Positions 19,468-64,000 of a DNA stretch of 64,000 nucleotides are shown in pieces. The notes under the pieces are model-generated. The model worked only from the letters and a program-made list of their open reading frames with translations, did not search any database and was not told the DNA's origin. The DNA is from Flectonema sp. DT1601. Lineage: Eukaryota. Positions within the stretch are counted from its first letter, which is position 1. Each line of letters opens with the position of its first letter. Position numbers and translations under genes: made by a program. The stretch lies in NCBI GenBank assembly GCA_964019425.1, contig OZ025796.1, forward strand, positions 1,116,001-1,180,000. Reading direction: 5' to 3'.

Positions 19468-19470
19468 CCA

Positions 19471-21490: not shown

Positions 21491-21510
21491 GGGAAAACCC
21501 CTAATTCCAC

Positions 21511-22610: not shown

Positions 22611-22700
22611 AAAATAGTTTGCGAAATCGCCAACTCATCACAAAAATTTTAACCGCTCGAAACAACCCAACATGACGGGAAAATTTTCAGAATTTTCGAA

Positions 22701-38456: not shown

Positions 38457-39915
38457 GAGTTGAGTTTACCAGGTGAGATTTGGACTGTTAGCTTTTGGCT
38501 AAGGCCCTCCCTGAAGAGCAAGAACAAAAAAACTACTCACACCTGAAGAAAACATACACAAAGAACACACTGTAAGCTGTGTGTGTATTTTGTGTTTGTC
38601 ACAACAGGAGAGAAAAGAAAGAATGTCAAGGTTGGTCACCTTGCCTATCAACGCACAACATTGGTGGTCTCTACTAGACCCTGAGTGATCCCACTGGATC
38701 TCTCATCGTTCATAGTACCCTGTGTGAAGTTATAAAATCAAAGGTAAACTATGAACTACAAATGACTTAGCCTGTTATTATAATGCCACAGGCAGGCCCT
38801 GCATTCAGCAACTATCCAGCAGTGCTAGGATGTCCTGATCTTCTTCTAAAAAAAAGAAAGAAAAACAAAACTGTAGCTGGGATCACTCAGGATCAACAGA
38901 CTACCAATGCTACCTGTTGTACTTGCTCACTATGGGGGGTGATGCCAAACACCCAGAAGTACTTAACTACTTTCCTTCTTGCTGCCCAGGAGTTTCTGAC
39001 CAGAACTAATAGAAAATAAAAAGTAGATGGGAAATAATAAAAAGTAAAATGAATATAACTGAAGTTAAACAAGACAAATGAGGTAACAGACCAGAACAGA
39101 TAGAGAATAAAAATAAAAGATATAGGCAAGAATGATTGTAGTGAAAGATTACAAATAAAAAAAATGCAAGATCAACACATGATCAAGATACACCAGCAGC
39201 TAACAAACAACATAAAATTGAAGATCAGTTGCCAGAGTATTTCAACCATGGTAGAATACTCGCCCCTCTGGCAGGGATTATCCCAGACTTGTCCTTTAAT
39301 CTAGTTGGACACCATGGCTTACAACCCTTCCAGAGGGAAGCACCATTATGACTTCTATTTTTTTTCTTCAAGAAAATCATAAGGTGGGAACAAAGAAAAA
39401 TGCTAAGAGGAACCCCTTATTAACACCTAAGACATCTAAACTGCAGCCCAGCTTATGCCCAATGCACTAACAGGTCATTCCCTCACACTCAGATCAAAAA
39501 ATCAAAGTTCAGAGTGCATCTTAGCGTGAATGAGAGAATTTCCTCCCGCTTTTTTTGAACAAAAGGGATAGGAGAAGGGATAGAAAACGAACATAACAAT
39601 AAGATTCTAAGTGAGGAACACTTAGCAGAAATACTTAGCAGCTTTTAAGGAGCTGAAAAGCAAAAAAAAAATCTAAGTGAGAAACACTTAGTAGAAACAC
39701 TTTGTAGCTAATTGAGCTGAAAATAAAAAAATAAAAAAATTTCTAAGTGAGAGATACTTAGCAACTTTTAGAACAAATATTTCAGTAAATAACCTGTTGA
39801 AATGGTAGTTAATGTAACCATTACAGGTTTGATGCCAATACTGACAAAGACTGAGTTGAGTTTACCAGGTGAGATTTGGACTGTTAGCTTTTGGCTAAGG
39901 CCCTCCCTGAAGAGC
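38457..39915 (-). mobile_element. Full-unit family A element (1396 bp plus 63-bp terminal direct repeat)
   Basis: 38457-38519 is repeated at 39853-39915. It is inserted in the piggyBac ORF between HYPSE and the Cys-rich domain. Confidence 0.92.
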
Positions 39916-40444
39916 TGCGATATTTGGCGCTGCTAAACAATGTAAGTATCACAATACTCGAGTGAGGACTACTTATGGATGCCAGGGGTGTAAGGTTTTT
40001 ATGTGTCCTGCACCCTGTTTTGGCAAATACCACTTAAATCTTACAAAGGGGAGAACATTTGCGTCCCATACCACCACCTCTGTGTCGGGAGGTGCTATCC
40101 GGGAAGAATGTACGAAGGGGAAGACCCCTGCACTCACAACAACATCAAAATTGAAGAGGCGCAGGGAGTCATAAGAACTGAGCTTATTTTTGTCTTTGGT
40201 GGTGTTTTCATTTGTTCTGTTCACCCTTTAGGTGGTGAATGTGTGTGTATTTTTAACGGGCAGGCAATGGCGGTTCACTTTGTCACATCACCTTTCCGAG
40301 CCCCCCTACCCCTTTTCCCCGTTAGCTCTTTTTTCAAAAAAAGTCAAAAAACCGGGTTTTACCCCCGTCCGTAATGGGTTAAAAAATAAATAAAAAGAAT
40401 TTAAAAAAAAAAAAAAAAAAAAAAAGAATAAACGAAAAAAAAAA

Positions 40445-40844
40445 AATTTCGATAAAGTGGGAAGTAACGGACTGGGAGCTTTTGGCTCCTGCCCTATTCC
40501 CGATGTAAACTTTCTTTTTATTTTTTTTTTTTTTTTTAACAGGCCCAAAGGGCGACAATGATGGTTGCTGACCAAGGAATAATATTCAAATGAATTTTCG
40601 TTTCAAAGAAACGAACAGAATTAAGAGAGAGGTAGAGAAAAAAAAAAAAAAAAAAAAGAAAGAATAGAAAAAAAATATGAAGAGGAAATAATCAAACATG
40701 AAAAAAAAAAGAAAAAAAAAATATAAATAAAAAACGTTGTATGAAAAAGGAAAAAAAAGAAAAAAAAAAAAAAAAGACCAGAAAAGGAAAGAGAAAATGA
40801 AAAGGTATAATATTATTGTGGGGATATGAGGATAGCAGGGAGAT

Positions 40845-40879
<35 letters not shown>

Positions 40880-42630
40880 TTATTATTTAAAAAAAGGAAA
40901 CAATCAGTTTAGCGTCTCGATCAGGACGGAAAATAGAAATTAATCGACATAGTCGATCGATAGAAAAAAAAACAATGATAACATTGTTTATTCCTTTTTT
41001 TTTTTTTTTTTTTTTATTCTTTTTATTTATTTTTAAAGAAAAAACAATCAGTTTAGCGTCTTGACCAGGACGGAAAATAGAAAGTGATCGACATAGTCGA
41101 TCGATAAAAAGACAATGATAACATTGTTTATTCTTTTTTTTTTTTTTTTTTTAAATTCTTTTTATTTATTTTTAAAGAAAAAAAAACGGAAAATAAAAAT
41201 TAGTCGACAAAGTCGAACGATAAAAAAAAACAATGATAAGAGTTGAATTTCCAGGTGAGATTTGGACTGTTAGCTTTTGGCTAAGGCCCTCCCTGAAGAG
41301 CAAGAACAAAAAAACTACTCACACCTGAAGAAAACATACACAAAGAACACACTGTAAGCTGTGTGTGTATTTTGTGTTTGTCACAACAGGAGAGAAAAGA
41401 AAGAATGTCAAGGTTGGTCACCTTGCCTATCAACGCACAACATTGGTGGTCTCTACTAGACCCTGAGTGATCCCACTGGATCTCTCATCGTTCATAGTAC
41501 CCTGTGTGAAGTTATAAAATCAAAGGTAAACTATGAACTACAAATGACTTAGCCTGTTATTATAATGCCACAGGCAGGCCCTGCATTCAGCAACTATCCA
41601 GCAGTGCTTGGATGTCCTGATCTTCTTCTAAAAAAAAGAAAGAAAAACAAAACTGTAGCTGGGATCACTCAGGATCAACAGACTACCAATGCTACCTGTT
41701 GTACTTGCTCACTATGGGGGGTGATGCCAAACACCCAGAAGTACTAAACTACTTTCCTTCTTGCTGCCCAGGAGTTTCTGACCAGAACTAATAGAAAATA
41801 AAAAGTAGATGGGAAACAATAAAAAGTAAAATGGATATAACTGAAGTTAAACAAGACAAATGAAGTAACAGACCAGAACAGAAAGAGAATTGTAATAGAA
41901 GATTACAAATAAGAAAATGCAAGTATCAACACATAATCAAGATACACCAGCAGCTAACAAACAACATAAAATTGAAGATCAGTTGCCAGAGTATTTCAAC
42001 CATGGTAGAATACTCGCCCCTCTGGCAGGGATTATCCCAGACTTGTCCTTTAATTTAGTTGGACACCATGGTTGTTTATTCTTTTTTTTTTTTGTTTTTT
42101 TTTATATTCTTTTTTATTAATTTTGAAAAAAAAACAATCAGTTTAGCGTCTTGACCAGGACGGAAAATAGAAAGTGATCGACATAGTCGATCGATAAAAA
42201 GACAATGATAACATTGTTTATTCTTTTTTTTTTTTTTTTTTTAAATTCTTTTTATTTATTTTTAAAGAAAAAAAAACGGAAAATAAAAATTAGTCGACAA
42301 AGTCGAACGATAAAAAAAAAACAATGATAACATTGTTTATTCTTTTTTTTTTTGTTTTTTTTTATATTCTTTTTTATTAATTTTGAAAAAAAAACAATCA
42401 GTTTAGCGTCTTGACCAGGACGGAAAATAGAAAGTAATCGACATAGTCGATCGATAAAAAAAAAACAATGATAACATTGTTTACTCTTTTTTTTTTTTTT
42501 TTTTAAATTCTTTTTATTTTAAAAAGAAAAAAAACGGAAAATAGAAATTAGTCAACAAAGTCGAACGATAAAAAAAAAACAATGATAACATTGTTTATTC
42601 TTTTTTTTTTATTTTTTTATATTCTTTTAT
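40445..42630 (-). mobile_element. Family D copy (fixed terminus plus satellite B), containing an A insertion
   Basis: Starts with the same AATTTCGATAAAGTGGGAAG end as 26822. Confidence 0.85.
41240..42071 (-). mobile_element. Family A truncated copy inserted in satellite B
   Basis: Interrupts CAATGATAA|(CA)TTGTTTATTC and has the same fixed end. Confidence 0.9.
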
Positions 42631-43800: not shown

Positions 43801-45087
43801 TCCGAAAGACTCCTGTTGTGCTTGTTCTTGCCAATCTGAAGAGGGTCGGTGGTCCTGCGTTGATGTGGTAGCCATTGGAAGCCCGTGTGCCTCTGGAATA
43901 TGTTGTACGTTATCAGTAGGGCAACATTCACGCCACTGGTTCCATCAGTTGACTAAGAACTATCAACAACACTGAATAACCTCCCCATCCCTTGAGGGGT
44001 GCAGGATGACAACGAACACAACGGTTGTTAGCTTCATCCCACGAGCACGACGGTACCAGAGGAAGTATCATGCTGCAGCGATGTGACGGAGGGTGAGGAG
44101 GAAGCTGCTGCTTCAAGAAGTCAGGTCACCGACAGATCACCTGTGAATCCATCAACAAGCCGGACTGTCCTTCGAGATATAATTGGTGACTTCGACCCGC
44201 TTCCCTTCTGTCTGTGCACCTGCGACAGCTTCAACTATGTCACTCACTCAGGACTTAGTTAGATCTCTCTGCGCCGATCCCTTCTTGCCGCAATATCTGC
44301 AGTGTAGTTAAGACTCCAAGACTCTAGGAGTATATCCCCCTTGTTTGGGTACAGTTGCAAGCGGATGTGTCTTCCGTACTTCTTTGTATGCCGCATGTAC
44401 TGGAGTGTCTTGTATGCCCTGCTGGTGAGTATGGTTGGGTCTTGAGTGATGCCTTGAACGGCTTTTTGGACGGGGCATGTTGCCCTATGTCGCTGTTGCT
44501 ATCTATGGCACTGCTATTTGAGGCACTACCACTACAGCTGTCTTCAGGCTTATCCCTGTTTGGGGTACAGACGTGGCGCTTTGTCTATTCTGTGAGCCTT
44601 CTGTGACCACGATTCAGATACTGGACGTTTTTGGACCCCTTTCTCACGCGTATCTTGCTTCTGACTGTCCAAGTGCTGTTGAGTGACTTCAGGGATGTCT
44701 CGGGAGGTGTTTTCATGCACTCCGGGATCAATGCTCTCCTCCGCAGAATGACTTTGTGAGCTGCCCTGCAGAACGTTGTTTTCCGCTGCGATATCCTCCG
44801 GTTTATCAAATATGTAGCGGTTTCTTTGAAGAAACAAAGCGGAATTTACCCCGCAAACAGAAATCAAGGGAAGAGGTCATCCTCGACCAAGAAAAACTTG
44901 AATGTCGTCTGGAAATGAAACAGCTAAGACAGGAGCTCCGCAAATCTGGGCCTTCTATAGAGAACGCTGTCAAATGGAAAGAGGCAAGAACGAGAATGAA
45001 AAGGATTTTCCGAATGTATCGGAATTTAGAAAAGAAAAATTTATTCAAAAAATTACAAGATAAATTTCGTCAAAATCCGTTTACTGC

Positions 45088-46247
45088 GTTGAATTTCCAG
45101 GTGAGATTTGGACTGTTAGCTTTTGGCTAAGGCCCTCCCTGAAGAGCAAGAACAAAAAAACTACTCACACCTGAAGAAAACATACACAAAGAACACACTG
45201 TTAGCTGTGTGTGTATTTTGTGTTTGTCACAACAGGAGAGAAAAGAAAGAATGTCAAGGTTGGTCACCTTGCCTATCAACGCACAACATTGGTGGTCTCT
45301 ACTAGACCCTGAGTGATCCCACTGGATCTCTCATCGTTCATAGTACCTATGTGAAGTTATAAAATCAAAGGTAAACTATGAACTACAAATGACTTAGCCT
45401 GTTATTATAATGCCACAGGCAGGCCCTGCATTCAGCAACTATCCAGCAGTGCTAGGATGTCCTGATCTTCTTCTAAAAAAAAGAAAGAAAAACAAAACTG
45501 TAGCTGGGATCACTCAGGATCAACAGACTACCAATGCTACCTGTTGTACTTGCTCACTATGGGGGGTGATGCCAAACACCCAGAAGTACTAAACTGCTTT
45601 CCTTCTTGCTGCCCAGGAGTTTCTGACCAGAACTAATAGAAAATAAAAAGTAGATGGGAAACAATAAAAAGTAAAATGGATATAACTGAAGTTAAACAAG
45701 ACAAATGAAGTAACAGACCCGAACAGAAAGAGAATTGTAATAGAAGATTACAAATAAAAAAATGCAAGTATCAACACATGATCAGGATACACCAGCAGCT
45801 AACAAACAACATAAAATTGAAGATCAGTTGCCAGAGTATTTCAACCATGGTAGAATACTCGCCCCTCTGGCAGGGATTATCCCAGACTTGTCCTTTAATT
45901 TAGTTGGACACCATGGCTTACAACCCTTCCAGAGGGAAGCACCATTATGACTTCTATTTTTTTTCTTCAAGAAAATCATAAGGTGGGAACAAAGAAAAAT
46001 GCTAAGAGGAACCCCCTATTAACACCTAAGACATCTAAACTGCAGCCCAGCCTATGCCCAATGCACTAACAGGTCATTCCCTCACACTCAGATCAAAAAA
46101 TCAAAGTTCAGAGTGCATCTTAGCGTGAATGAGAGAATTTCCTCCCGCTTATTTTGAACAAAAGGGATAGGAGAAGGGATAGAAAACGAACATAAAAATA
46201 AAATTCTAAGTGAGAAACACTTAGCAGAAACACTTAGCAGCTTTTAA
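45088..46247 (-). mobile_element. Family A insertion with an 11-bp TSD
   Basis: CCGTTTACTGC occurs at 45077-45087 and 46248-46258 but is single-copy at this site in the intact element. Confidence 0.93.
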
Positions 46248-47027
46248 CCGTTTACTGCCATAAAAGAAGAACTCCAAAAAGAAGATCCTCAACCCCCCTC
46301 CCTTGATATTCCAGAGGAAAAAATAATTGAACATTTTAAAAACAATTATTGTGACAATGAAAAAAAAAAAACTGATTTCACCCATCCCTCTTTTTTACCT
46401 AAGTCTGACTACAAGACAATGGATGATATCCAGTTCCCGAGCTTCGAACAGTTTGGTATTCTCTTATCAAAGAAAAAAAACAAATGTGCCCCTGGTCCCA
46501 ATTGCATACCTTATGTTGTATGGAAAAAGGTCCCAACTTTTATGGAAGCACTTTACAAGGTATTAAAGAGAATTTTCGAACTCAAGGCCTATCCGGATAG
46601 TTGGGGCTTAGCATTTGTAACAATGCTCCCAAAGCCCAACTCCGATGGGAAAGACATCTCGAAAACGAGACCGATAGCTGTGGGCAACTGCGACGGGAAA
46701 ATTTTTAATACGGTTATTCAGGAAGCCGTCGCAAACCACACTCTTTCTAAATTTAATTTTCAAAAAGGCTTTAGGAAAGGTGTCTCTGGGTGTATCGAAC
46801 ATGCCACGATCACCTCAGAGATTTTTAAAGAAGTGAAAGCTCTCCGGAAAAACCTAACAATTGTCTGGGTGGATTTGGCAGATGCTTTCGGCTCAGTCAA
46901 ACATCAATTAATTTTCTTTGCTTTAAAATATTTCGGAATTCACGAAAGAATAATCGGTTTCTATAAAAGGTATTATTCCTCCATGCGCGTCCAAATCAGA
47001 GTTGGAGAAGGCCTGACGCCCACTATC

Positions 47028-47664
47028 ACTCATTGTTTTTTTTTTTTATTGTTCGACTTTGTTGACTAATTTCTATTTTCCGTTTTTTTTTTTTCTTTTT
47101 AAAAAATAAATAAAAAGAATTTAAAAAAAAAAAAAAAAAAAAGAATAAACAATGTTATCATTGTTTTTTTTTTCATCGATCGACTATGTCGATTACTTTC
47201 TATTTTCCGTCCTGGTCAAGACGCTAAACTGATTGTTTTTTTTCAAAATTAATAAAAAAGAATATAAAAAAAAAACAAAAACAAAAAGAATAAACAATGC
47301 TATCATTGTTTTTTTTTTATCGTTCGACTTTGTCGACTAATTTTTATTTTCCGTTTTTTTTTCTTTAAAAATAAATAAAAAGAAATTAAAAAAAAAAAAA
47401 AAAAAAAAGAATAAACAATGTTATCATTGTTTTTTTAGCGATCGACTATGTCGATCACTTTCTATTTTCCGTCCTGGTCAAGAAGCTAAACTGATTGTTT
47501 TTTCTTTAAAATAATAAAAAGGATTAAAAAAAAAAAAAAAAAAAAAAAAAAGAATAAACAATGTTATCATTGTTTTTTATCGATCGACTATGTCGATCAC
47601 TTTCTATTTTCCGTCCTGGTCAAGACGCTAAACTGATTGTTTTTTCTTTAAAAAATAATTAAAA

Positions 47665-47702
<38 letters not shown>

Positions 47703-47960
47703 TTAATCAATGTTATCATTGTTTTTTTTATCGATCGACTATGTCGATCACTTTCAATTTTCCGTCCTGGTCAGGACGCTAAACTGATTGTTTTTTCTTT
47801 AAAAATAAATGAAAAGAACAAAAAAAAAAAAAAAAAAAAAAGGAATAAACAATGTTATCATTGTTTTTTTTTTATCGATCGACTATGTCGATTACTTTCT
47901 ATTTTCCGTCCTGGTCAAGACGCTAAACTGATTGTTTTTTCTTTAAAATAATTAAAAGGG

Positions 47961-47991
<31 letters not shown>

Positions 47992-48512
47992 ATAAACAAT
48001 GTTATCATTGTTTTTTTTCTATCGATCGACTATGTCGATTAATTTCTATTTTCCGTCCTGATCGAGACGCTAAACTGATTGTTTCCTTTTTTTAAATAAT
48101 AAAAAAAAAAAAAAAAGAGCATCTCCCTGCTATCCTCATATCCCCACAATAATATTATACCTTTTCATTTTCTCTTTCCTTTTCTGGTCTTTTTTTTTCT
48201 TTTTTTCCTTTTTCATACAACGTTTTTTATTTATATATTTTTTTTTTTTTTTTTTTCATGTTTGATTATTTCCTCTTCATATTTTTTTTTTTCTATTCTT
48301 TCTTTTTTTTTTTTTTTTTTCTCTGCCTCTCTCTCAATTCTGTTCGTTTCTTTGAAACGAAAATTCATTTGAATATTATTCCTTGGTCAGCAACCATCAT
48401 TGTCGCCCTTTGGGCCTGTTAAAAAAAAAAATAAAAATAAAAAGAAAGTTTACATCGGGAATAGGGCAGGAGCCAAAAGCTCCCAGTCCGTTACTTCCCA
48501 CTTATCGAAATT
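47028..48512 (+). mobile_element. Family D insertion (satellite B plus fixed terminus) inside the RT domain
   Basis: Interrupts CCCACTATC|CCTTTTGAAG without a duplication and ends ...TTACTTCCCACTTATCGAAATT. Confidence 0.9.
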
Positions 48513-49890
48513 CCTTTTGAAGTTGGTGTCTTTCAAGGCTGCGTTTCCTCCCCAACCCTTTTTAATTTGGTATTCCAACTACTGCTCTTTTCCTTAGCAG
48601 TTCATCAACAGGAAGCCTACGAGTTTAACAATAAATCCCTCCAACTATTAGTTGCAGCTTTTGCTGATGATTTACAACTTACCACGTCATCAAAGGCGGG
48701 GGCAAAATTGCTAATCAAGTCGCTCGAACAGTTTCTTTCCTGGTCTCGTGGTATGAAAGCGAAACCCCAGAAATGCATTGCCCACAGCTTTGTACAAGGG
48801 AAACCAGCTAACCCGGACCTGAAGATTAACAATGTTCCGATTACGAATCTCCAGGAAGCTGGAGAGTTCAAATACCTCGGGCGTTGGTTTGAGCCGAACG
48901 CCAAAGAACAGAAATTGCGAGAGCGCCTGACCACTTTTACCAGGAATTTTTTAAAAAAAGTCGACGCCATGCCACTATATGGGTCTCAGAAGGCTTGGTC
49001 TGTCCAACACTTGTTATTGTCAAGGTTAACATGGAGTTTAATGATCCATGACTTATCTCTCCCTTTTGCCAAAAAAATGGACAAAATTATTAAACCTTTT
49101 TTGAAGAAATGGTGGGGATTTGTCCGCTCTGCGAACACAGTCATCCTTTTTACCGGTTCAAAGAACACTGTTGGTCTCAGACACAAAAGAGTTGAGACGC
49201 TATATAAACAAGCGCAATCAATTAAACTAGACATCCTCAGATCCTCACAGGACTCTGACATGCACGGTGTCTACAATGTTATTATGGAGAAATCGTCCAA
49301 CTGGTCGAAAAAGTTTTCAGCTTCTGCTGAGTGGGAGCGCCTTATTAAGTTTTTTTCTTACCGTTCTCTTGCGAAGCAATCAGCTGGTCTTGGTCACCGA
49401 TTGCGCGATCTACGTACTACTCGCCCCGATCTCCTTAAGCGTTTTGAAGTGGAAGCCACAGATGAACTACTGAACTCTTTGAATAAATTACAAGTCCAAG
49501 GTCAGTGGAAGGAGTGGTCTAAATGTATGATAAACGACTTCACCTGGAATAAGGTACTTAGGGAGGGAAATCCTGCCTATATCTCATTTCAACTGAAAGC
49601 GGTTACAAACACCCTCCCCTCACAAGATAATTTAAAGAGGTGGAACATCACCAATGTGGACCAAAATTGTGTTTTGTGTGGCAAAGTGAATCCTACCCTC
49701 AGGCATGTCTTAACAGGCTGTCCTGTCTCTTTAACACAAGGGAGGTTCACGTGGCGTCACGACAGCGTTCTAAAACGCATTGTTATCTTCTTGGAAGAGT
49801 TGATAATAAAAGCCAACAAAAGAAAAGAAAACCTCCCGCCTCCCTCTCAAACTTTTTTAAAAACAGGGGAAAATAAACCCCTAGAAAGAA

Positions 49891-49921
49891 TGATTGTTTT
49901 TTCTTTAAAACAATTAAAAAG

Positions 49922-49956
<35 letters not shown>

Positions 49957-50228
49957 AATAAACAATGTTATCATTGTTTTTTTTCTATCGATCAACTATG
50001 TCGATTAATTTCTATTTTCCGTCCTGATCGAGACGCTAAACTGATTGTTTCCTTTTTTTAAATAATAAATAAGAAAAAAAAAAAAAAAAAAAAAGAGCAT
50101 CTCCCTGCTATCCCTCATATCCCCACAATAATATTATACCTTTTCATTTTCTCTTTCCTTTTCTGGTCTTTTTTTTTTTCTTTTTTTTCCTTTTTCATAC
50201 AACGTTTTTTATTTATATATATATATAT
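49891..50228 (+). repeat. Partial family D segment
   Basis: Matches ~47925-48235 and ends in a (TA)n run. Confidence 0.8.
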
Positions 50229-50759
50229 CAGTCATTCCTTTTTTTTGCGAACAAATTCTGGACACTGAAAATTTTTTTCAAAAAAAAAATGTAAAAATTT
50301 CGATCGAAGCGGCATTTTAATGCGCTGCATCGTTGGGTTCATTTCCGTCCGAAATCGGGAGGTTGGCATCACATACTTCTCTCCCGAATTGAGAAAAGAG
50401 ATTTTGTGGTTTACTAAATCAGCTCAGCCGTGGACAAGTACCAAAACTAAAAATTACTCGAAGGGTCTAATTTTACACTGCTGGCCCAGCGGGATCCAGA
50501 GAAAAAACAATCGAGCAAAAATATATTAAAGAGTACTAAGCATGTGCCGGTGAGGCAGATTGTTACTACCTGTCTTTTTGTACCTACTTTGATACTTAAT
50601 GAAAACATTTTCTTTATATAGATGCAACATTTTCCTTACATAATTGCTACTAGGGTTGATTAGTTAGCAAAAAGGTGCATATCTCCTGAGTGCGGGAGAA
50701 GGAAAAAAAATAGTAAAAAAAAAAAAATTAGGGGTGTTTTTTACTCAGATTTTCTCAGA
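50229..50759. mobile_element. Possible one-ended Tc1/pogo-like element fragment
   Basis: Unique sequence beginning TA|CAGTCATTCC after (TA)n. No partner TIR was seen. Confidence 0.3.
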
Positions 50760-51651
50760 TAAACAATGTTATCATTGTTTTTTTATCGATCGACTATGTC
50801 GATCACTTTCTATTTTCCGTCCTGGTCAAGACGCAAAACTGATTGTTTTTTTTCAAAATTAATAAAAAAGAATACAAAAAAAAATAAAAAAAAAAGAATA
50901 AACAATGTTATCCTTGTTTTTTTTTTTATCGTTCGACTTTGTTGACTAATTTCTATTTTCCGTTTTTTTTTTTCTTTTTAAAAAATAAATAAAAAGAATT
51001 TAAAATAAAAAAAAAGAATAAACAATGTTATCATTGTCTTTTTTTTATCGATCGACTATGTCGATTACTTTCTATTTTCCGTCCTGGTCAAGACGCTAAA
51101 CTGATTGTTTTTTCTTTAAAAAAAAAAAAAAAACGATTTAAAAAAAAAAAAAAAAAGAATAAACAATGTTATCATTGTTTTTTTTTATCGATCGACTATG
51201 TCGATCACTTTCTATTTTCCGTCCTGGTCAAGACGCTAAATTGATTGTTTTTTTTTTCAAAATTAATAAAAAAGAATATAAAAAAAAATAAAAAAAAAAG
51301 AATAAACAATGTTATCATTGTTTTTTTTTTTATCGTTCGACTTTGTTGACTAATTTCTATTTTCCGTTTTTTTTTCTTTTTAAAAAATAAATAAAAAGAA
51401 TTTAAAAAAAAAAAAAAAAAGAGTAAACAATGTTATCATTGTTTTTTTTTATCGATCGACTATGTCGATTACTTTCTATTTTCCGTCCTGGTCAAGACGC
51501 TAAACTGATTGTTTTTTTTTCAAAATTATTAAAAAAGAATATAAAAAAAAACAAAAAAAAAAGAATAAACAATGTTATCATTGTTTTTTTTTTATATCGT
51601 TCGACTTTGTCGACTAATTTTTATTTTCCGTTTTTTTTCTTTAAAAATAAT
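50760..51651. repeat. Satellite B array
   Basis: Same motifs as the other satellite B arrays. Confidence 0.93.
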
Positions 51652-54600
51652 TGTTTCTTCATTTTTTTACATTAATAATTACATTTTGTTCAAAAAGAAA
51701 AAAAAAGAAAAAAGATTTCATATTAGAAACCAGGAAACTAGGTTAACACTTAGTTAAAATTAAGACCGGTTAGTCAGTTTAAGGTCTTGTCTAGGACCAA
51801 CATTCTTGTTTAACTTCAGTTATATTCATTTTACTTTTTATTGTTTCCCATCTACTTTTTATTTTCTATTAGTTCTGGTCAGAAACTCCTGGGCAGCAAG
51901 AAGGAAAGTAGTTAAGTACTTCTGGGTGTTTGGCATCACCCCCCATAGTGAGCAAGTACAACAGGTAGCATTGGTAGTCTGTTGATCCTGAGTGATCCCA
52001 GCTACAGTTTTGTTTTTCTTTCTTTTTTTTAGAAGAAGATCAGGACATTCAAGCACTGCTGGATAGTTGCTGAATGCAGGGCCTGCCTGTGGCATTATAA
52101 TAACAGGCTAAGTCATTTGTAGTTCATAGTTTACCTTTGATTTTATAACTTCACATAGGGTACTATGAACGATGAGAGATCCAGTGGGATCACTCAGGGT
52201 CTAGTAGAGACCACCAATGTTGTGCGTTGATAGGCAAGGTGACCAACCTTGACATTCTTTCTTTTCTCTCCTGTTGTGACAAACACAAAATACACACACA
52301 GCTTACAGTGTGTTCTTTGTGTATGTTTTCTTCAGGTGTGAGTAGTTTTTTTGTTCTTGCTCTTCAGGGAGGGCCTTAGCCAAAAGCTAACAGTCCAAAT
52401 CTCACCTGGTAAACTCAACTCAGTCTTTGTCAGTATTGGCATCAAACCTGTAATGGTTACATTAACTACCATTTCAACAGGTTATTTACTGAAATATTTG
52501 TTCTAAAAGTTGCTAAGTATCTCTCACTTAGAAATTTTTTTATTTTTTTATTTTCAGCTCAATTAGCTACAAAGTGTTTCTACTAAGTGTTTCTCACTTA
52601 GATTTTTTTTTTGCTTTTCAGCTCCTTAAAAGCTGCTAAGTATTTCTGCTAAGTGTTTCTCACTTAGAATCTTATTGTTATGTTCGTTTTCTATCCCTTC
52701 TCCTATCCCTTTTGTTCAAAAAAAGCGGGAGGAAATTCTCTCATTCATGCTAAGATGCACTCTGAACTTTGATTTTTTTGATCTGAGTGTGAGGGAATGA
52801 CCTGTTAGTGCATTGGGCATAAGCTGGGCTGCAGTTTAGATGTCTTAGGTGTTAATAAGGGGTTCCTCTTAGCATTTTTCTTTGTTACCACCTTATGATT
52901 TTCTTGAAGAAAAAAAATAGAAGTCATAATGGTGCTTCCCTCTGGAAGGGTTGTAAGCCATGGTGTCCAACTAAATTAAAGGACAAGTCTGGGATAATCC
53001 CTGCCAGAGGGGCGAGTATTCTACCATGGTTGAAATACTCTGGCAACTGATCTTCAATTTTATGTTGTTTGTTAGCTGCTGGTGTATCTCGATCATGTGT
53101 TGATACTTGCATTTTTTTTTTTATTTGTAATCTTTTACTACAATAACTCTTGCAATTATCTTTTCTTTTTTATTCTCTATCTGTTCTGGTCTGTTTCTTC
53201 ATTTTTTTACATTAATAATTACATTTTGTTCAAAAAGAAAAAAAAAGAAAAAAGATTTCATATTAGAAACCAGGAAACTAGGTTAACACTTAGTTAAAAT
53301 TAAGACCGGTTAGTCAGTTTAAGGTCTTGTCTAGGACCAACATTCTTGTTTAACTTCAGTTATATTCATTTTACTTTTTATTGTTTCCCATCTACTTTTT
53401 ATTTTCTATTAGTTCTGGTCAGAAACTCCTGGGCAGCAAGAAGGAAAGTAGTTAAGTACTCCTGGGTGTTTGGCATCACCCCCCATAGTGAGCAAGTACA
53501 ACAGGTAGCATTGGTAGTCTGTTGATCCTGAGTGATCCCAGCTACAGTTTTGTTTTTCTTTCTTTTTTTTAGAAGAAGATCAGGACATTCAAGCACTGCT
53601 GGATAGTTGCTGAATGCAGGGCCTGCCTGTGGCATTATAATAACAGGCTAAGTCATTTGTAGTTCATAGTTTACCTTTGATTTTATAACTTCACATAGGG
53701 TACTATGAACGATGAGAGATCCAGTGGGATCACTCAGGGTCTAGTAGAGACCACCAATGTTGTGCGTTGATAGGCAAGGTGACCAACCTTGACATTCTTT
53801 CTTTTCTCTCCTGTTGTGACAAACACAAAATACACACACAGCTTACAGTGTGTTCTTTGTGTATGTTTTCTTCAGGTGTGAGTAGTTTTTTTGTTCTTGC
53901 TCTTCAGGGAGGGCCTTAGCCAAAAGCTAACAGTCCAAATCTCACCTGGTAAACTCAACTCAGTCTTTGTCAGTATTGGCATCAAACCTGTAATGGTTAC
54001 ATTAACTACCATTTCAACAGGTTATTTACTGAAATATTTGTTCTAAAAGTTGCTAAGTATCTCTCACTTAGAAATTTTTTTATTTTTTTATTTTCAGCTC
54101 AATTAGCTACAAAGTGTTTCTACTAAGTGTTTCTCACTTAGATTTTTTTTTTGCTTTTCAGCTCCTTAAAAGCTGCTAAGTATTTCTGCTAAGTGTTTCT
54201 CACTTAGAATCTTATTGTTATGTTCGTTTTCTATCCCTTCTCCTATCCCTTTTGTTCAAAAAAAGCGGGAGGAAATTCTCTCATTCATGCTAAGATGCAC
54301 TCTGAACTTTGATTTTTTTGATCTGAGTGTGAGGGAATGACCTGTTAGTGCATTGGGCATAAGCTGGGCTGCAGTTTAGATGTCTTAGGTGTTAATAAGG
54401 GGTTCCTCTTAGCATTTTTCTTTGTTACCACCTTATGATTTTCTTGAAGAAAAAAAATAGAAGTCATAATGGTGCTTCCCTCTGGAAGGGTTGTAAGCCA
54501 TGGTGTCCAACTAAATTAAAGGACAAGTCTGGGATAATCCCTGCCAGAGGGGCGAGTATTCTACCATGGTTGAAATACTCTGGCAACTGATCTTCAATTT

Positions 54601-57600
54601 TATGTTGTTTGTTAGCTGCTGGTGTATCTCGATCATGTGTTGATACTTGCATTTTTTTTTTTATTTGTAATCTTTTACTACAATAACTCTTGCAATTATC
54701 TTTTCTTTTTTATTCTCTATCTGTTCTGGTCTGTTTCTTCATTTTTTTACATTAATAATTACATTTTGTTCAAAAAGAAAAAAAAAGAAAAAAGATTTCA
54801 TATTAGAAACCAGGAAACTAGGTTAACACTTAGTTAAAATTAAGACCGGTTAGTCAGTTTAAGGTCTTGTCTAGGACCAACATTCTTGTTTAACTTCAGT
54901 TATATTCATTTTACTTTTTATTGTTTCCCATCTACTTTTTATTTTCTATTAGTTCTGGTCAGAAACTCCTGGGCAGCAAGAAGGAAAGTAGTTAAGTACT
55001 CCTGGGTGTTTGGCATCACCCCCCATAGTGAGCAAGTACAACAGGTAGCATTGGTAGTCTGTTGATCCTGAGTGATCCCAGCTACAGTTTTGTTTTTCTT
55101 TCTTTTTTTTAGAAGAAGATCAGGACATTCAAGCACTGCTGGATAGTTGCTGAATGCAGGGCCTGCCTGTGGCATTATAATAACAGGCTAAGTCATTTGT
55201 AGTTCATAGTTTACCTTTGATTTTATAACTTCACATAGGGTACTATGAACGATGAGAGATCCAGTGGGATCACTCAGGGTCTAGTAGAGACCACCAATGT
55301 TGTGCGTTGATAGGCAAGGTGACCAACCTTGACATTCTTTCTTTTCTCTCCTGTTGTGACAAACACAAAATACACACACAGCTTACAGTGTGTTCTTTGT
55401 GTATGTTTTCTTCAGGTGTGAGTAGTTTTTTTGTTCTTGCTCTTCAGGGAGGGCCTTAGCCAAAAGCTAACAGTCCAAATCTCACCTGGTAAACTCAACT
55501 CAGTCTTTGTCAGTATTGGCATCAAACCTGTAATGGTTACATTAACTACCATTTCAACAGGTTATTTACTGAAATATTTGTTCTAAAAGTTGCTAAGTAT
55601 CTCTCACTTAGAAATTTTTTTATTTTTTTATTTTCAGCTCAATTAGCTACAAAGTGTTTCTACTAAGTGTTTCTCACTTAGATTTTTTTTTTGCTTTTCA
55701 GCTCCTTAAAAGCTGCTAAGTATTTCTGCTAAGTGTTTCTCACTTAGAATCTTATTGTTATGTTCGTTTTCTATCCCTTCTCCTATCCCTTTTGTTCAAA
55801 AAAAGCGGGAGGAAATTCTCTCATTCATGCTAAGATGCACTCTGAACTTTGATTTTTTTGATCTGAGTGTGAGGGAATGACCTGTTAGTGCATTGGGCAT
55901 AAGCTGGGCTGCAGTTTAGATGTCTTAGGTGTTAATAAGGGGTTCCTCTTAGCATTTTTCTTTGTTACCACCTTATGATTTTCTTGAAGAAAAAAAATAG
56001 AAGTCATAATGGTGCTTCCCTCTGGAAGGGTTGTAAGCCATGGTGTCCAACTAAATTAAAGGACAAGTCTGGGATAATCCCTGCCAGAGGGGCGAGTATT
56101 CTACCATGGTTGAAATACTCTGGCAACTGATCTTCAATTTTATGTTGTTTGTTAGCTGCTGGTGTATCTCGATCATGTGTTGATACTTGCATTTTTTTTT
56201 TTATTTGTAATCTTTTACTACAATAACTCTTGCAATTATCTTTTCTTTTTTATTCTCTATCTGTTCTGGTCTGTTTCTTCATTTTTTTACATTAATAATT
56301 ACATTTTGTTCAAAAAGAAAAAAAAAGAAAAAAGATTTCATATTAGAAACCAGGAAACTAGGTTAACACTTAGTTAAAATTAAGACCGGTTAGTCAGTTT
56401 AAGGTCTTGTCTAGGACCAACATTCTTGTTTAACTTCAGTTATATTCATTTTACTTTTTATTGTTTCCCATCTACTTTTTATTTTCTATTAGTTCTGGTC
56501 AGAAACTCCTGGGCAGCAAGAAGGAAAGTAGTTAAGTACTTCTGGGTGTTTGGCATCACCCCCCATAGTGAGCAAGTACAACAGGTAGCATTGGTAGTCT
56601 GTTGATCCTGAGTGATCCCAGCTACAGTTTTGTTTTTCTTTCTTTTTTTTAGAAGAAGATCAGGACATTCAAGCACTGCTGGATAGTTGCTGAATGCAGG
56701 GCCTGCCTGTGGCATTATAATAACAGGCTAAGTCATTTGTAGTTCATAGTTTACCTTTGATTTTATAACTTCACATAGGGTACTATGAACGATGAGAGAT
56801 CCAGTGGGATCACTCAGGGTCTAGTAGAGACCACCAATGTTGTGCGTTGATAGGCAAGGTGACCAACCTTGACATTCTTTCTTTTCTCTCCTGTTGTGAC
56901 AAACACAAAATACACACACAGCTTACAGTGTGTTCTTTGTGTATGTTTTCTTCAGGTGTGAGTAGTTTTTTTGTTCTTGCTCTTCAGGGAGGGCCTTAGC
57001 CAAAAGCTAACAGTCCAAATCTCACCTGGTAAACTCAACTCAGTCTTTGTCAGTATTGGCATCAAACCTGTAATGGTTACATTAACTACCATTTCAACAG
57101 GTTATTTACTGAAATATTTGTTCTAAAAGTTGCTAAGTATCTCTCACTTAGAAATTTTTTTATTTTTTTATTTTCAGCTCAATTAGCTACAAAGTGTTTC
57201 TACTAAGTGTTTCTCACTTAGATTTTTTTTTTGCTTTTCAGCTCCTTAAAAGCTGCTAAGTATTTCTGCTAAGTGTTTCTCACTTAGAATCTTATTGTTA
57301 TGTTCGTTTTCTATCCCTTCTCCTATCCCTTTTGTTCAAAAAAAGCGGGAGGAAATTCTCTCATTCATGCTAAGATGCACTCTGAACTTTGATTTTTTTG
57401 ATCTGAGTGTGAGGGAATGACCTGTTAGTGCATTGGGCATAAGCTGGGCTGCAGTTTAGATGTCTTAGGTGTTAATAAGGGGTTCCTCTTAGCATTTTTC
57501 TTTGTTACCACCTTATGATTTTCTTGAAGAAAAAAAATAGAAGTCATAATGGTGCTTCCCTCTGGAAGGGTTGTAAGCCATGGTGTCCAACTAAATTAAA

Positions 57601-60600
57601 GGACAAGTCTGGGATAATCCCTGCCAGAGGGGCGAGTATTCTACCATGGTTGAAATACTCTGGCAACTGATCTTCAATTTTATGTTGTTTGTTAGCTGCT
57701 GGTGTATCTCGATCATGTGTTGATACTTGCATTTTTTTTTTTATTTGTAATCTTTTACTACAATAACTCTTGCAATTATCTTTTCTTTTTTATTCTCTAT
57801 CTGTTCTGGTCTGTTTCTTCATTTTTTTACATTAATAATTACATTTTGTTCAAAAAGAAAAAAAAAGAAAAAAGATTTCATATTAGAAACCAGGAAACTA
57901 GGTTAACACTTAGTTAAAATTAAGACCGGTTAGTCAGTTTAAGGTCTTGTCTAGGACCAACATTCTTGTTTAACTTCAGTTATATTCATTTTACTTTTTA
58001 TTGTTTCCCATCTACTTTTTATTTTCTATTAGTTCTGGTCAGAAACTCCTGGGCAGCAAGAAGGAAAGTAGTTAAGTACTTCTGGGTGTTTGGCATCACC
58101 CCCCATAGTGAGCAAGTACAACAGGTAGCATTGGTAGTCTGTTGATCCTGAGTGATCCCAGCTACAGTTTTGTTTTTCTTTCTTTTTTTTAGAAGAAGAT
58201 CAGGACATTCAAGCACTGCTGGATAGTTGCTGAATGCAGGGCCTGCCTGTGGCATTATAATAACAGGCTAAGTCATTTGTAGTTCATAGTTTACCTTTGA
58301 TTTTATAACTTCACATAGGGTACTATGAACGATGAGAGATCCAGTGGGATCACTCAGGGTCTAGTAGAGACCACCAATGTTGTGCGTTGATAGGCAAGGT
58401 GACCAACCTTGACATTCTTTCTTTTCTCTCCTGTTGTGACAAACACAAAATACACACACAGCTTACAGTGTGTTCTTTGTGTATGTTTTCTTCAGGTGTG
58501 AGTAGTTTTTTTGTTCTTGCTCTTCAGGGAGGGCCTTAGCCAAAAGCTAACAGTCCAAATCTCACCTGGTAAACTCAACTCAGTCTTTGTCAGTATTGGC
58601 ATCAAACCTGTAATGGTTACATTAACTACCATTTCAACAGGTTATTTACTGAAATATTTGTTCTAAAAGTTGCTAAGTATCTCTCACTTAGAAATTTTTT
58701 TATTTTTTTATTTTCAGCTCAATTAGCTACAAAGTGTTTCTACTAAGTGTTTCTCACTTAGATTTTTTTTTTGCTTTTCAGCTCCTTAAAAGCTGCTAAG
58801 TATTTCTGCTAAGTGTTTCTCACTTAGAATCTTATTGTTATGTTCGTTTTCTATCCCTTCTCCTATCCCTTTTGTTCAAAAAAAGCGGGAGGAAATTCTC
58901 TCATTCATGCTAAGATGCACTCTGAACTTTGATTTTTTTGATCTGAGTGTGAGGGAATGACCTGTTAGTGCATTGGGCATAAGCTGGGCTGCAGTTTAGA
59001 TGTCTTAGGTGTTAATAAGGGGTTCCTCTTAGCATTTTTCTTTGTTACCACCTTATGATTTTCTTGAAGAAAAAAAATAGAAGTCATAATGGTGCTTCCC
59101 TCTGGAAGGGTTGTAAGCCATGGTGTCCAACTAAATTAAAGGACAAGTCTGGGATAATCCCTGCCAGAGGGGCGAGTATTCTACCATGGTTGAAATACTC
59201 TGGCAACTGATCTTCAATTTTATGTTGTTTGTTAGCTGCTGGTGTATCTCGATCATGTGTTGATACTTGCATTTTTTTTTTTATTTGTAATCTTTTACTA
59301 CAATAACTCTTGCAATTATCTTTTCTTTTTTATTCTCTATCTGTTCTGGTCTGTTTCTTCATTTTTTTACATTAATAATTACATTTTGTTCAAAAAGAAA
59401 AAAAAAGAAAAAAGATTTCATATTAGAAACCAGGAAACTAGGTTAACACTTAGTTAAAATTAAGACCGGTTAGTCAGTTTAAGGTCTTGTCTAGGACCAA
59501 CATTCTTGTTTAACTTCAGTTATATTCATTTTACTTTTTATTGTTTCCCATCTACTTTTTATTTTCTATTAGTTCTGGTCAGAAACTCCTGGGCAGCAAG
59601 AAGGAAAGTAGTTAAGTACTTCTGGGTGTTTGGCATCACCCCCCATAGTGAGCAAGTACAACAGGTAGCATTGGTAGTCTGTTGATCCTGAGTGATCCCA
59701 GCTACAGTTTTGTTTTTCTTTCTTTTTTTTAGAAGAAGATCAGGACATTCAAGCACTGCTGGATAGTTGCTGAATGCAGGGCCTGCCTGTGGCATTATAA
59801 TAACAGGCTAAGTCATTTGTAGTTCATAGTTTACCTTTGATTTTATAACTTCACATAGGGTACTATGAACGATGAGAGATCCAGTGGGATCACTCAGGGT
59901 CTAGTAGAGACCACCAATGTTGTGCGTTGATAGGCAAGGTGACCAACCTTGACATTCTTTCTTTTCTCTCCTGTTGTGACAAACACAAAATACACACACA
60001 GCTTACAGTGTGTTCTTTGTGTATGTTTTCTTCAGGTGTGAGTAGTTTTTTTGTTCTTGCTCTTCAGGGAGGGCCTTAGCCAAAAGCTAACAGTCCAAAT
60101 CTCACCTGGTAAACTCAACTCAGTCTTTGTCAGTATTGGCATCAAACCTGTAATGGTTACATTAACTACCATTTCAACAGGTTATTTACTGAAATATTTG
60201 TTCTAAAAGTTGCTAAGTATCTCTCACTTAGAAATTTTTTTATTTTTTTATTTTCAGCTCAATTAGCTACAAAGTGTTTCTACTAAGTGTTTCTCACTTA
60301 GATTTTTTTTTTGCTTTTCAGCTCCTTAAAAGCTGCTAAGTATTTCTGCTAAGTGTTTCTCACTTAGAATCTTATTGTTATGTTCGTTTTCTATCCCTTC
60401 TCCTATCCCTTTTGTTCAAAAAAAGCGGGAGGAAATTCTCTCATTCATGCTAAGATGCACTCTGAACTTTGATTTTTTTGATCTGAGTGTGAGGGAATGA
60501 CCTGTTAGTGCATTGGGCATAAGCTGGGCTGCAGTTTAGATGTCTTAGGTGTTAATAAGGGGTTCCTCTTAGCATTTTTCTTTGTTACCACCTTATGATT

Positions 60601-63600
60601 TTCTTGAAGAAAAAAAATAGAAGTCATAATGGTGCTTCCCTCTGGAAGGGTTGTAAGCCATGGTGTCCAACTAAATTAAAGGACAAGTCTGGGATAATCC
60701 CTGCCAGAGGGGCGAGTATTCTACCATGGTTGAAATACTCTGGCAACTGATCTTCAATTTTATGTTGTTTGTTAGCTGCTGGTGTATCTCGATCATGTGT
60801 TGATACTTGCATTTTTTTTTTTATTTGTAATCTTTTACTACAATAACTCTTGCAATTATCTTTTCTTTTTTATTCTCTATCTGTTCTGGTCTGTTTCTTC
60901 ATTTTTTTACATTAATAATTACATTTTGTTCAAAAAGAAAAAAAAAGAAAAAAGATTTCATATTAGAAACCAGGAAACTAGGTTAACACTTAGTTAAAAT
61001 TAAGACCGGTTAGTCAGTTTAAGGTCTTGTCTAGGACCAACATTCTTGTTTAACTTCAGTTATATTCATTTTACTTTTTATTGTTTCCCATCTACTTTTT
61101 ATTTTCTATTAGTTCTGGTCAGAAACTCCTGGGCAGCAAGAAGGAAAGTAGTTAAGTACTTCTGGGTGTTTGGCATCACCCCCCATAGTGAGCAAGTACA
61201 ACAGGTAGCATTGGTAGTCTGTTGATCCTGAGTGATCCCAGCTACAGTTTTGTTTTTCTTTCTTTTTTTTAGAAGAAGATCAGGACATTCAAGCACTGCT
61301 GGATAGTTGCTGAATGCAGGGCCTGCCTGTGGCATTATAATAACAGGCTAAGTCATTTGTAGTTCATAGTTTACCTTTGATTTTATAACTTCACATAGGG
61401 TACTATGAACGATGAGAGATCCAGTGGGATCACTCAGGGTCTAGTAGAGACCACCAATGTTGTGCGTTGATAGGCAAGGTGACCAACCTTGACATTCTTT
61501 CTTTTCTCTCCTGTTGTGACAAACACAAAATACACACACAGCTTACAGTGTGTTCTTTGTGTATGTTTTCTTCAGGTGTGAGTAGTTTTTTTGTTCTTGC
61601 TCTTCAGGGAGGGCCTTAGCCAAAAGCTAACAGTCCAAATCTCACCTGGTAAACTCAACTCAGTCTTTGTCAGTATTGGCATCAAACCTGTAATGGTTAC
61701 ATTAACTACCATTTCAACAGGTTATTTACTGAAATATTTGTTCTAAAAGTTGCTAAGTATCTCTCACTTAGAAATTTTTTTATTTTTTTATTTTCAGCTC
61801 AATTAGCTACAAAGTGTTTCTACTAAGTGTTTCTCACTTAGATTTTTTTTTTGCTTTTCAGCTCCTTAAAAGCTGCTAAGTATTTCTGCTAAGTGTTTCT
61901 CACTTAGAATCTTATTGTTATGTTCGTTTTCTATCCCTTCTCCTATCCCTTTTGTTCAAAAAAAGCGGGAGGAAATTCTCTCATTCATGCTAAGATGCAC
62001 TCTGAACTTTGATTTTTTTGATCTGAGTGTGAGGGAATGACCTGTTAGTGCATTGGGCATAAGCTGGGCTGCAGTTTAGATGTCTTAGGTGTTAATAAGG
62101 GGTTCCTCTTAGCATTTTTCTTTGTTACCACCTTATGATTTTCTTGAAGAAAAAAAATAGAAGTCATAATGGTGCTTCCCTCTGGAAGGGTTGTAAGCCA
62201 TGGTGTCCAACTAAATTAAAGGACAAGTCTGGGATAATCCCTGCCAGAGGGGCGAGTATTCTACCATGGTTGAAATACTCTGGCAACTGATCTTCAATTT
62301 TATGTTGTTTGTTAGCTGCTGGTGTATCTCGATCATGTGTTGATACTTGCATTTTTTTTTTTATTTGTAATCTTTTACTACAATAACTCTTGCAATTATC
62401 TTTTCTTTTTTATTCTCTATCTGTTCTGGTCTGTTTCTTCATTTTTTTACATTAATAATTACATTTTGTTCAAAAAGAAAAAAAAAGAAAAAAGATTTCA
62501 TATTAGAAACCAGGAAACTAGGTTAACACTTAGTTAAAATTAAGACCGGTTAGTCAGTTTAAGGTCTTGTCTAGGACCAACATTCTTGTTTAACTTCAGT
62601 TATATTCATTTTACTTTTTATTGTTTCCCATCTACTTTTTATTTTCTATTAGTTCTGGTCAGAAACTCCTGGGCAGCAAGAAGGAAAGTAGTTAAGTACT
62701 TCTGGGTGTTTGGCATCACCCCCCATAGTGAGCAAGTACAACAGGTAGCATTGGTAGTCTGTTGATCCTGAGTGATCCCAGCTACAGTTTTGTTTTTCTT
62801 TCTTTTTTTTAGAAGAAGATCAGGACATTCAAGCACTGCTGGATAGTTGCTGAATGCAGGGCCTGCCTGTGGCATTATAATAACAGGCTAAGTCATTTGT
62901 AGTTCATAGTTTACCTTTGATTTTATAACTTCACATAGGGTACTATGAACGATGAGAGATCCAGTGGGATCACTCAGGGTCTAGTAGAGACCACCAATGT
63001 TGTGCGTTGATAGGCAAGGTGACCAACCTTGACATTCTTTCTTTTCTCTCCTGTTGTGACAAACACAAAATACACACACAGCTTACAGTGTGTTCTTTGT
63101 GTATGTTTTCTTCAGGTGTGAGTAGTTTTTTTGTTCTTGCTCTTCAGGGAGGGCCTTAGCCAAAAGCTAACAGTCCAAATCTCACCTGGTAAACTCAACT
63201 CAGTCTTTGTCAGTATTGGCATCAAACCTGTAATGGTTACATTAACTACCATTTCAACAGGTTATTTACTGAAATATTTGTTCTAAAAGTTGCTAAGTAT
63301 CTCTCACTTAGAAATTTTTTTATTTTTTTATTTTCAGCTCAATTAGCTACAAAGTGTTTCTACTAAGTGTTTCTCACTTAGATTTTTTTTTTGCTTTTCA
63401 GCTCCTTAAAAGCTGCTAAGTATTTCTGCTAAGTGTTTCTCACTTAGAATCTTATTGTTATGTTCGTTTTCTATCCCTTCTCCTATCCCTTTTGTTCAAA
63501 AAAAGCGGGAGGAAATTCTCTCATTCATGCTAAGATGCACTCTGAACTTTGATTTTTTTGATCTGAGTGTGAGGGAATGACCTGTTAGTGCATTGGGCAT

Positions 63601-64000
63601 AAGCTGGGCTGCAGTTTAGATGTCTTAGGTGTTAATAAGGGGTTCCTCTTAGCATTTTTCTTTGTTACCACCTTATGATTTTCTTGAAGAAAAAAAATAG
63701 AAGTCATAATGGTGCTTCCCTCTGGAAGGGTTGTAAGCCATGGTGTCCAACTAAATTAAAGGACAAGTCTGGGATAATCCCTGCCAGAGGGGCGAGTATT
63801 CTACCATGGTTGAAATACTCTGGCAACTGATCTTCAATTTTATGTTGTTTGTTAGCTGCTGGTGTATCTCGATCATGTGTTGATACTTGCATTTTTTTTT
63901 TTATTTGTAATCTTTTACTACAATAACTCTTGCAATTATCTTTTCTTTTTTATTCTCTATCTGTTCTGGTCTGTTTCTTCATTTTTTTACATTAATAATT
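51652..64000 (+). repeat. Head-to-tail tandem array of a 1540-bp unit (family A plus ~140-bp insert), 8 units, running to the window edge
   Basis: ORF track entries recur every 1540 bp (51859, 53399, 54939 ... 62639), and the units are nearly identical. Confidence 0.98.

Follow-up and report, generated by a model that had tools for sequence, protein, structure and literature searches.

In the R2 paradigm, the retrotransposon protein binds the 3′ untranslated region (UTR) of the RNA and positions it for target priming (PMC13580325). The 3′ ends of R2 SIDE (short internally deleted) elements fold like R2 with compensatory changes (PMC3414825). Compensatory 3′ ends are also shared by plant L1/SINE pairs (long and short interspersed nuclear elements, LINEs and SINEs), in a comparison whose table includes Entamoeba R4-type pairs (PMC3747384). 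Clades of elements with a restriction-like endonuclease (RLE) have been described (PMC4640811, PMC7650587), and the Diplonema genome paper notes R2-like open reading frames while regarding rigorous transposon identification as still warranted (PMC10161547). We analyzed a 64,000-nucleotide stretch of the Flectonema sp. DT1601 genome (contig OZ025796.1, positions 1,116,001 to 1,180,000; the window), to which all counts refer unless stated otherwise. The window contains an RLE-type LINE, whose 3′ end we call D, and a non-coding element, A, that ends in the same bulged hairpin. We consider it probable (roughly 0.64), judging from sequence, that A is a non-coding partner copied by this LINE's protein through the shared 3′ hairpin, the two forming a stringent LINE/partner pair. 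If a sister LINE is allowed as the source of the enzyme, a stringent pair becomes highly likely.

The hairpin pattern GGGC-N-N5-CAAAA-N5-CA-GTCC occurs 18 times in the window: three times in D (48464 on the plus strand, 40494 and 26871 on the minus strand), seven times in dispersed A copies and eight times in an array of 1540-bp A units. An earlier note on this DNA had described an identical loop, CA bulge and GGGC/GUCC stem in the two families, with two inner pairs changed in a compensatory manner. Our analysis confirms this description. D and A agree at 21 of 26 hairpin positions, and shuffling the terminal 60 nt 20,000 times never gave 21 or more. The two inner pairs are changed on both sides (U-A in A, G-C in D). 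The earlier note saw no other similarity between the two ends, which did not hold. Beneath both hairpins a further, outer helix is predicted, in which a 1-nt bulge on the 3′ side separates 2 bp from 5 bp; six of its seven pairs differ on both sides between D and A. The same outer-bulge position arose in both ends in 15 of 200,000 shuffles. In D, the fold with the outer helix is the second-best, 1.1 kcal/mol above the minimum, and the D end is more stable than shuffled sequence (z = −2.6). The strand that the earlier note proposed as the RNA folds as described, and the opposite strand has no unusual fold. The D/A pair resembles a natural mutagenesis experiment: 8 of the 16 predicted pairs have both bases exchanged, and the loop, the bulge and GGGC/GUCC stay constant.

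The fixed 3′ termini reported for both families were also upheld. The six dispersed A ends lie within 0–2 nt of each other, 22–25 nt past GTCC, and the three D ends lie 23–25 nt past GTCC; poly(A) is absent at all six A ends and all three D ends. The seventh dispersed A motif, at 39903, is not an additional 3′ end, being the 5′ copy of a terminal direct repeat in full-length A. Positions 52365–52421, previously taken for an A terminus, are inside the tandem array and read through into the next unit.

D is not a non-coding cargo, as the earlier note had it, but the 3′ end of an 11.27-kb retrotransposon. A full-length RLE-type (R2-superfamily) element that is not of the long-terminal-repeat (LTR) kind occupies 26821–38086 on the minus strand (11,266 bp). 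It is flanked by a 10-bp target-site duplication, TGGATTAGGA, with one copy beside the D end (26811–26820) and the other at the 5′ end (38087–38096), 290 nt upstream of the reverse transcriptase (RT) frame. This sequence occurs exactly twice in the window (chance, 91 of 20,000 shuffles). The duplication thus encloses D and the RT frame together, which makes D part of an autonomous LINE. The element runs contiguously on one strand through a 5′ region, a 1759-aa frame, 1.6 kb of UTR, 3.7 kb of a satellite (B; 27227–30945, minus strand, units of ~120–145 nt) and the D hairpin module (26821–26883, minus strand), the 3′ UTR totalling 5.7 kb. The earlier note had asked what autonomous reading frame lies upstream of such hairpins; for D it is this RT frame, on the same strand.

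Since D is the LINE 3′ end, the remaining D copies are 5′-truncated LINE copies. One consists of B satellite and D at 40445–41239 (minus strand). The other, also B and D, lies at 47031–48513 (plus strand, hairpin 48464–48489) inside an RT copy and has no duplication. That RT copy (44799–49891, plus strand) is itself 5′-truncated, is interrupted by A and D, and is 99.9–100% identical to the full element. A further 5′-truncated copy, with the end of the frame, UTR and B, spans 19458–24659 (plus strand) and is interrupted at ~21491–23771 by an element with terminal inverted repeats. RT copies within the window are 98.6–100% identical, which suggests recent LINE activity, and the family belongs to a 235-member protein cluster. 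On other contigs, database proteins P0001 and P0099 contain RT sequence fused in the same sense to D sequence, and in P0129 RT is fused to a D end that lies a few bases at most from the terminus seen here. These junction peptides would fit D as a LINE end, with nested insertions as the alternative.

The LINE frame (32519–37798, minus strand) encodes two N-terminal Cys/His fingers, an RT, a CCHC knuckle, an RLE and an extension of ~560 aa. The RT has an intact ADD motif and matches RVT_1 (3.6e-26) and zf-RVT in Pfam, and the endonuclease carries the motif PD...ELT...K..Y. The RT, CCHC and RLE motifs are conserved in 16 aligned homologues. The best PDB matches are R2 proteins, and the closest full-length homologues among the 150 matches listed are ~30–37% identical. 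The C-terminal extension follows the RLE in frame (32519–34207, minus strand), and the 16 homologues carry only 2–156 residues there. It is predicted to be coiled-coil-like, with low recognition, a weak Pfam match and only generic coiled-coil look-alikes; its start recurs in other copies (P0047, P0099 and P0129). The first methionine of the frame (37798–36980, minus strand) is codon 274, downstream of both zinc fingers, and a non-AUG start is possible. The single frame with N-terminal zinc fingers, RT, CCHC and a C-terminal PD-(D/E)xK-like endonuclease is that of an RLE-type element, and the fixed 3′ end, truncated 5′ ends and short or absent target duplications are those of a non-LTR retrotransposon.

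Full-length A (38457–39914, minus strand, 1458 bp) carries a 62-nt hairpin module, R, at both ends (5′ copy 39853–39914, minus strand). R starts with CT and ends with TC. The element is non-coding, its longest frame having 92 codons. We compared A with the assembled contigs of four other runs. A contig from run X2 joins 38455 directly to 39920, so full-length A is a discrete insertion with an empty counterpart. Besides this copy, four A copies are 5′-truncated (447–1158 nt) and a fifth consists solely of the module (60 nt), the A copies being 95–100% identical. A truncated copy at 45088–46245 (minus strand) lies in the RT copy and has an 11-bp duplication (45077–45087 and 46248–46258). Another, at 41240–42071 (minus strand), lies inside B satellite with either a 2-nt target loss or a template-jump chimera with a D copy. 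A third (1040 nt) is joined to the R-only copy (21511–22610, minus strand), and a fourth (19021–19467, minus strand) is joined 5′-to-5′ to an oppositely oriented LINE copy. Apart from the 11-bp duplication, A junctions are mostly blunt or have lost 1–2 nt, and some have a few extra bases. This non-coding element with a duplication, 5′ truncation and an empty site shares its structured 3′ end with the LINE, as a partner would.

Nor are the two families unrelated, as had been thought: A is partly homologous to the LINE 3′ UTR. A block at 31379–31486 (minus strand) matches A (39113–38998) at 76% over 117 columns, with a blastn value of 6e-18 and an nhmmer value of 8.8e-7 in AT-rich sequence of high composition bias. 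A and the LINE are thus related in two places, this block and the hairpin.

A 3′ cis signal, recognized by an RT that primes on its target, is supported by the constancy of the 3′ ends and the truncation of the 5′ ends, by the 10- and 11-bp duplications and by the empty site. The earlier note had proposed that one RT mobilizes several cargos in this way; the signal itself is supported, and several cargos are not supported by the scans made here. A covariance model built from 10 termini and scanned over bases 1–53500, a search meant to reveal further families, returned only the 11 known copies, with the next match at 10 bits. Because no third cargo was found, the proposed set of unrelated cargos is reduced to a LINE and one partner. 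A metagenome scan for the hairpin gave six matches, none of which keeps all five inner pairs or resembles the window, and a viral contig scan gave none.

We propose that the LINE protein would recognize three conserved parts of a predicted bulged hairpin of ~16 bp (the GGGC/GUCC stem, the CA bulge and the CAAAA loop), nick the target and start cDNA synthesis 12–15 nt 3′ of the outer helix, making poly(A) unnecessary. Through the hairpin, the protein would likewise bind the RNA of A, and target-primed reverse transcription would then place new A copies elsewhere. A may descend from, or have captured, the 3′ UTR of an older LINE relative, after which the stems would have diverged with compensation; it would persist by keeping the same hairpin module. 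Two A copies begin at the first base of R. By analogy with HeT-A, this weakly suggests that the A transcript starts in the previous tandem unit; HeT-A itself encodes Gag. Transcription from tandem arrays, with its start ~62 nt short of the end of the preceding unit, could then yield R-only, R-unit-R and longer copies.

A tandem array of A occupies 51652–64000 (plus strand), with eight units of 1540 bp that differ at one site; the R at 52360–52421 is internal to it. The array unit has a ~140-nt insert that is missing from the full A copy. Head-to-tail A joints without this insert are present in contigs of two of the four runs (X1 and X4), and tandem A is therefore not peculiar to this locus. 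A bolder, and rather doubtful, extension is that A represents a new retro-parasite layout, namely a non-coding, HeT-A-like tandem unit. Its transcript would begin 62 nt short of the preceding unit's end. The protein of a non-telomeric RLE element would bind the hairpin within this read-through transcript and prime cDNA at a set distance from it, needing neither an RNA 3′ end nor a tail, so as to generate monomers, 60-nt minimal copies and multi-kb satellites. If so, the 60-nt module would be a complete, portable mobilization tag for an RLE enzyme able to insert 11 kb or more of cargo.

Several observations weigh against our reading of A and D. The covariation rests on only two sequence types and is not independent statistical evidence: 355 of 500 shuffles reach the observed number of pairs changed on both sides. 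The covariation that the earlier note set out to check thus holds for pairing (72 of 72 cells of nine pairs are paired across copies) and fails for significance, so that the D/A agreement is a match of structure and not significant covariation. The A hairpin by itself is not unusually stable (z = −0.49 against shuffles), and its core pair probabilities drop to 0.5–0.7 within the read-through context. Only two of nine examined 3′ junctions have a duplication of at least 10 bp; the other seven are blunt, have lost 1–2 nt or are unpairable. The RT–D joins in P0001 and P0099 are possibly insertions instead of internal deletions. The fixed 5′ start of R is seen in two copies only, one of them with 1–3 nt of microhomology. 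The 1540-bp array starts at a short microhomology with the flanking satellite, a start that fits DNA amplification as well as RNA copying, and this array may have grown at the DNA level.

The same applies to six RT/RLE fragments that are 62–70% identical to the LINE protein among the 150 matches listed. They bring in a different explanation, in which A belongs to a sister RLE LINE family elsewhere in the genome, as its partner or as its remnant, the hairpin being retained by descent and each family served by its own enzyme. The divergence of A from the LINE UTR (~76–81% alike where alignable) would also fit a sister family. The fragments are, however, short (150–376 aa) and look broken or fused, while the family in the window has near-identical copies and the 235-member cluster, and the A copies are equally young (95–100% identical). 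Three of the six fragments, when looked up, lie on contigs of 302–463 kb that may or may not be part of this genome. We regard separate enzymes as unlikely. The hairpin might instead be a signal for RNA 3′-end formation or stability (termination, cleavage or protection), with RT starting at the resulting end. Both RNAs lack poly(A), A needs a defined end from read-through arrays, and conserved loop and bulge bases would suit any protein-binding site. Yet the position of the hairpin is that of the RT-recognized bulged 3′ stem-loops of stringent LINEs (as described in PMC1636434 and PMC3747384), and no ribozyme family matched A. An RNA-end signal alone is in our view distinctly improbable, and the two functions are not mutually exclusive.

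Terminal direct repeats, near-perfect arrays and head-to-tail joints are also features of retrozymes (as described in bioRxiv 10.64898/2026.07.22.740005), and A could be retrozyme-like or Penelope-dependent and spread through circular RNA, the hairpin match being secondary. But the end structure of A is that of the RLE LINE, A has no Rfam ribozyme match, and the A sense strand contains no CUGANGA (the hammerhead core); we find this route highly improbable. Least plausible, with a probability near zero, is that A and D move as DNA through a rolling-circle (Helitron/HUH) enzyme reading a subterminal hairpin. A subterminal hairpin, a single constant end, tandem arrays and satellites within the element are all in keeping with a Helitron. 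Helitrons end in TC...CTRR and make no duplication, whereas the ends here do not match that motif and 10- and 11-bp duplications are present. The G-U pair favors RNA. For D, its attachment to an RT gene within a duplication-bounded element largely refutes this route. The Penelope-like and rolling-circle enzymes that the earlier note named as alternatives are thus disfavored relative to copying of A by an RLE LINE protein.

Other class assignments were rejected. The LINE does not belong to the R2 clade proper: its full copy lies in a piggyBac-like gene, not at the 28S site, and its 5′ end has no ribozyme match. A is not a SINE in the strict sense (a tRNA, 5S or 7SL head and a length under ~600 bp), having no tRNA genes by ARAGORN, no credible Rfam match and a length of 1458 bp. 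It is not a SIDE, as it does not match the LINE 5′ region and its 5′ end repeats the 3′ module. No hammerhead ribozyme is present in its terminal repeat, as would be needed for a retrozyme or a Penelope-like pseudo-LTR, and a search of the ends of A and of the LINE gave no ribozyme of any kind. Terminal-repeat retrotransposons in miniature (TRIM) and other LTR elements have TG...CA repeat ends and a fixed 4–6-bp duplication; the CT/TC ends of R, the duplications of 0–2 or 11 bp and the 5′ truncation of most copies exclude a TRIM or non-autonomous LTR element. An array of spliced leader (SL), 5S, small nuclear RNA or tRNA genes was rejected by the absence of credible Rfam or ARAGORN matches, the SL sequence itself not having been searched. 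For the variable last 12 nt of A, an origin in the target and a role as guide were both rejected: flanks are dissimilar, and in run X2 one variant is followed by the next bases of the array.

Some further observations concern the elements and their insertion sites. A pyrimidine tract ending in CAG at 52345–52368 (plus strand) is splice-acceptor-like and overlaps the start of the A module, whose observed 5′ boundary is 8 nt upstream of the AG. At 19458–19467, the 5′-to-5′ joint of A and LINE adjoins host sequence, as if both strands of a break had primed different RNAs. Two independent insertions in B satellite (e.g. 42071, 42629) hit nearly one position of the B unit (to within ~3 nt), possibly a favored target. 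Insertion junctions are AT-rich, and we claim no target-site consensus. A run X2 contig placed at 38376 has a loose end resembling a cDNA-amplification adaptor, a hint that the run may be a cDNA library; it was not used as evidence of expression.

The LINE and full-length A split a decayed piggyBac-like transposon (25899–40380, plus strand) into pieces at 25899–26820, 38087–38455 and 39920–40380, which preserve a record of the target. The left piece matches DDE_Tnp_1_7 (8.5e-9) and the far right piece zf-Tnp_2 (0.0097), in the expected order and with inverted ends. The middle pieces have no relevant Pfam match, and no named homologue was found in PDB or database searches. We take the transposon to be continuous across the LINE on the strength of the duplication, the domain order and a sequence motif. 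At the left of the window are long open frames of host genes, including an Era-like GTPase whose nearest homologue (56% identical) is from the diplonemid Flectonema neradi, so that by this one gene the host is probably a diplonemid; a nest of repeats extends from ~19,000 on. The element at 21491–23771, presumably Mutator-like (MULE-like), has ~57-bp inverted ends and a 9-bp A-rich duplication, with further partial copies at 24660 and 43163. It carries a ~300-nt fragment of 28S rRNA spanning the R2 target site, at which the fragment is not interrupted. Further short insertions lie at 24742–25036 and 50224–50759, one with inverted ends and internal mini-repeats and one starting after a TA run. 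A Twister-P1 ribozyme-like match at 18173–18256 (minus strand; 31 bits, E 0.0057, under the gathering score of 67) has a well-matched central core; its position is outside the repeat nest, and it may be part of a different element.

Among described RLE elements, the LINE may be compared with the HERO clade, which is RLE-encoding and has many non-site-specific members (PMC4640811). Against HERO, it is atypical in its 11.3-kb length, satellite-bearing UTR and ~560-aa extension. The UnaL2/UnaSINE1 pair likewise has a bulged 3′ stem-loop in both partners, and the bulge matters for UnaL2 mobility (PMC1636434). It differs in its L2 clade, AP endonuclease, tRNA-derived SINE and short terminal repeats (described in part in PMC3747384). 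EhLINE1/EhSINE1 of Entamoeba pairs a protist non-LTR element with a non-coding partner of unknown origin, with ~70 nt common at the 3′ end, dispersed insertion and duplications, as here (PMC2996970). EhSINE1 is polyadenylated and 500–600 bp long, and its report never uses the word 'tandem' (PMC2996970). A, by contrast, is 1.4–1.5 kb, terminally redundant and tandem, and shares structure with its LINE more than sequence.

The R2/SIDE pair of Drosophila resembles A and the LINE in its RLE-type enzyme, non-Pol III partner, compensatory 3′ fold, unrelated central region and template jumps, the last observed in vivo for R2/SIDE (PMC3414825). As described there, R2/SIDE is restricted to 28S rDNA and has a 5′ hepatitis-delta-virus-like ribozyme, poly(A) and an 81% shared 3′ end (PMC3414825). 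The LINE and A are dispersed, with no ribozyme found and no tail, and A lacks the LINE 5′ end and has its own 3′ module there. HeT-A, like A, has no RT of its own and forms head-to-tail arrays; its terminally redundant transcripts begin within the 3′ end of the copy ahead of it, at −62 or −31 (PMC1636488). HeT-A differs in targeting chromosome ends and pairing with jockey-type elements (PMC1636488), whereas A is non-coding and inserts internally. The proposed A start site is drawn from two DNA copies only. If the terminal redundancy of A mirrors its transcript, retrotransposition would be linked to satellite formation outside telomeres.

In the literature searched, most subscription journals and Repbase Reports being outside its scope, we found no RLE LINE described as having a non-coding partner that is terminally redundant and forms arrays, a weak negative. 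The pair is documented in a probable diplonemid, a group whose transposons await rigorous annotation according to its genome paper (PMC10161547). RLE enzymes attract interest for RNA-templated gene insertion (PMC13580325), and the D/A comparison points to a recognition element of ~60 nt for a non-site-specific RLE enzyme. Shared 3′ hairpins of LINEs and their partners are already established, and the basic finding is not surprising in that light; what is new here relative to the known pairs is the terminal redundancy and arrays of A, and the unusual size, UTR and extension of the LINE.

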